A stretch of 64,000 bases of DNA from an uncultured Nitrososphaerota archaeon. Its GTDB lineage: Archaea; Thermoproteota; Nitrososphaeria; Nitrososphaerales; Nitrosopumilaceae. The text below continues a report on this DNA, generated by a model with database tools. The stretch is from positions 1,088,001 through 1,152,000 of the forward strand of contig OY969559.1 in NCBI GenBank assembly GCA_963701075.1. The letters are read 5' to 3'. The letters are not shown here.

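Follow-up and report, generated by a model that had tools for sequence, protein, structure and literature searches.

Regulatory elements and regulator families

The small wHTH regulator genes are associated with a second conserved cis-element, which is positioned directly upstream of their TATA box, is abundant in TGCA repeats and has the core TGCAATGC. Across eight genomes from other genera (loci L065-L072), this TGCA-rich element precedes each wHTH gene that was examined; it is also found at both wHTH copies of the island, and is probably an operator in its own right. At one of these loci, L065 in genome G177, the wHTH gene is followed by an RHH-like gene and additionally carries a perfect 20-bp main box (23.7 bits). 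Because this box lies downstream of the TATA box and abuts the ATG, the arrangement suggests that the box factor would act as a repressor of the wHTH/RHH-like operon in the genus of G177. The wHTH and RHH-like proteins belong to large thaumarchaeal regulator families with no described function, each with 9 matches in this genome and a wide distribution in the order (90 and 50, respectively, of 121 genomes).

Gene starts and broken genes

In four island genes the longest-ORF start overruns the gene's own promoter box. Since the box-to-start spacing is fixed at 38-40 nt, later starts are predicted for all four, with the resulting protein lengths of three listed in the table. Two further genes, encoding a USP and an ABC-2 permease, are broken, and these may be either true pseudogenes or assembly errors.

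Features of the island, its flanks and related loci (window positions unless stated)
Position	Strand	Feature	Detail
12669-13079	-	Stand-alone receiver-domain protein	Left flank
18454-18889	-	USP	Split over two frames
23299-26963		AMP phosphorylase, IF-2B-family isomerase, type III RuBisCO	Operon
28128-28200		TGCA-rich element	At wHTH copy
31847-32689		ATP-cone, PD-(D/E)XK nuclease-like and AF1548-like C-terminal domains	Single protein
33686		CBS pair	Box overrun; 149 aa from box-spaced start
39091-39874	-	ABC-2 permease	Frameshift
40897-41493		Hsp20	Box overrun; 170 aa
43223		Cupredoxin	Box overrun
53207-53713		USP	Box overrun; 156 aa
55820-55892		TGCA-rich element	At wHTH copy
58286-60964		Pyruvate phosphate dikinase	Query
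L004:2159-2536 (genome 1443159-1443536)		IS4/5-family transposase fragment (DUF4096)	Outside island
G177:C1:873501-874400		Locus L065	Main box touching ATG

Flanks and gene content

With the gene at 58286-60964 as query, pyruvate phosphate dikinase is matched in only 9 of 24 other genomes of the genus, and several of the genomes that lack a match are 99% complete. The left flank encodes a receiver-domain protein, and 12 of the genome's 16 receiver domains fall between 1.19 and 1.38 Mb; a search of the genome for a GerE-type output domain found none. The transposase fragment at L004 is divergent from a USP under box control.

Within the block, the ATP-cone protein is kept across genera at 49-67% identity, and it may be a nucleotide-gated nuclease. 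The type III RuBisCO operon is carried here by an ammonia oxidizer whose carbon fixation uses another route. The block of genome G147 contains only the phosphorylase of the operon's three genes. The literature treats this operon as a species-specific peculiarity of a single Nitrosotalea strain. Here its DNA is matched, among the matches listed, in at least 17 of 60 genomes of the genus.
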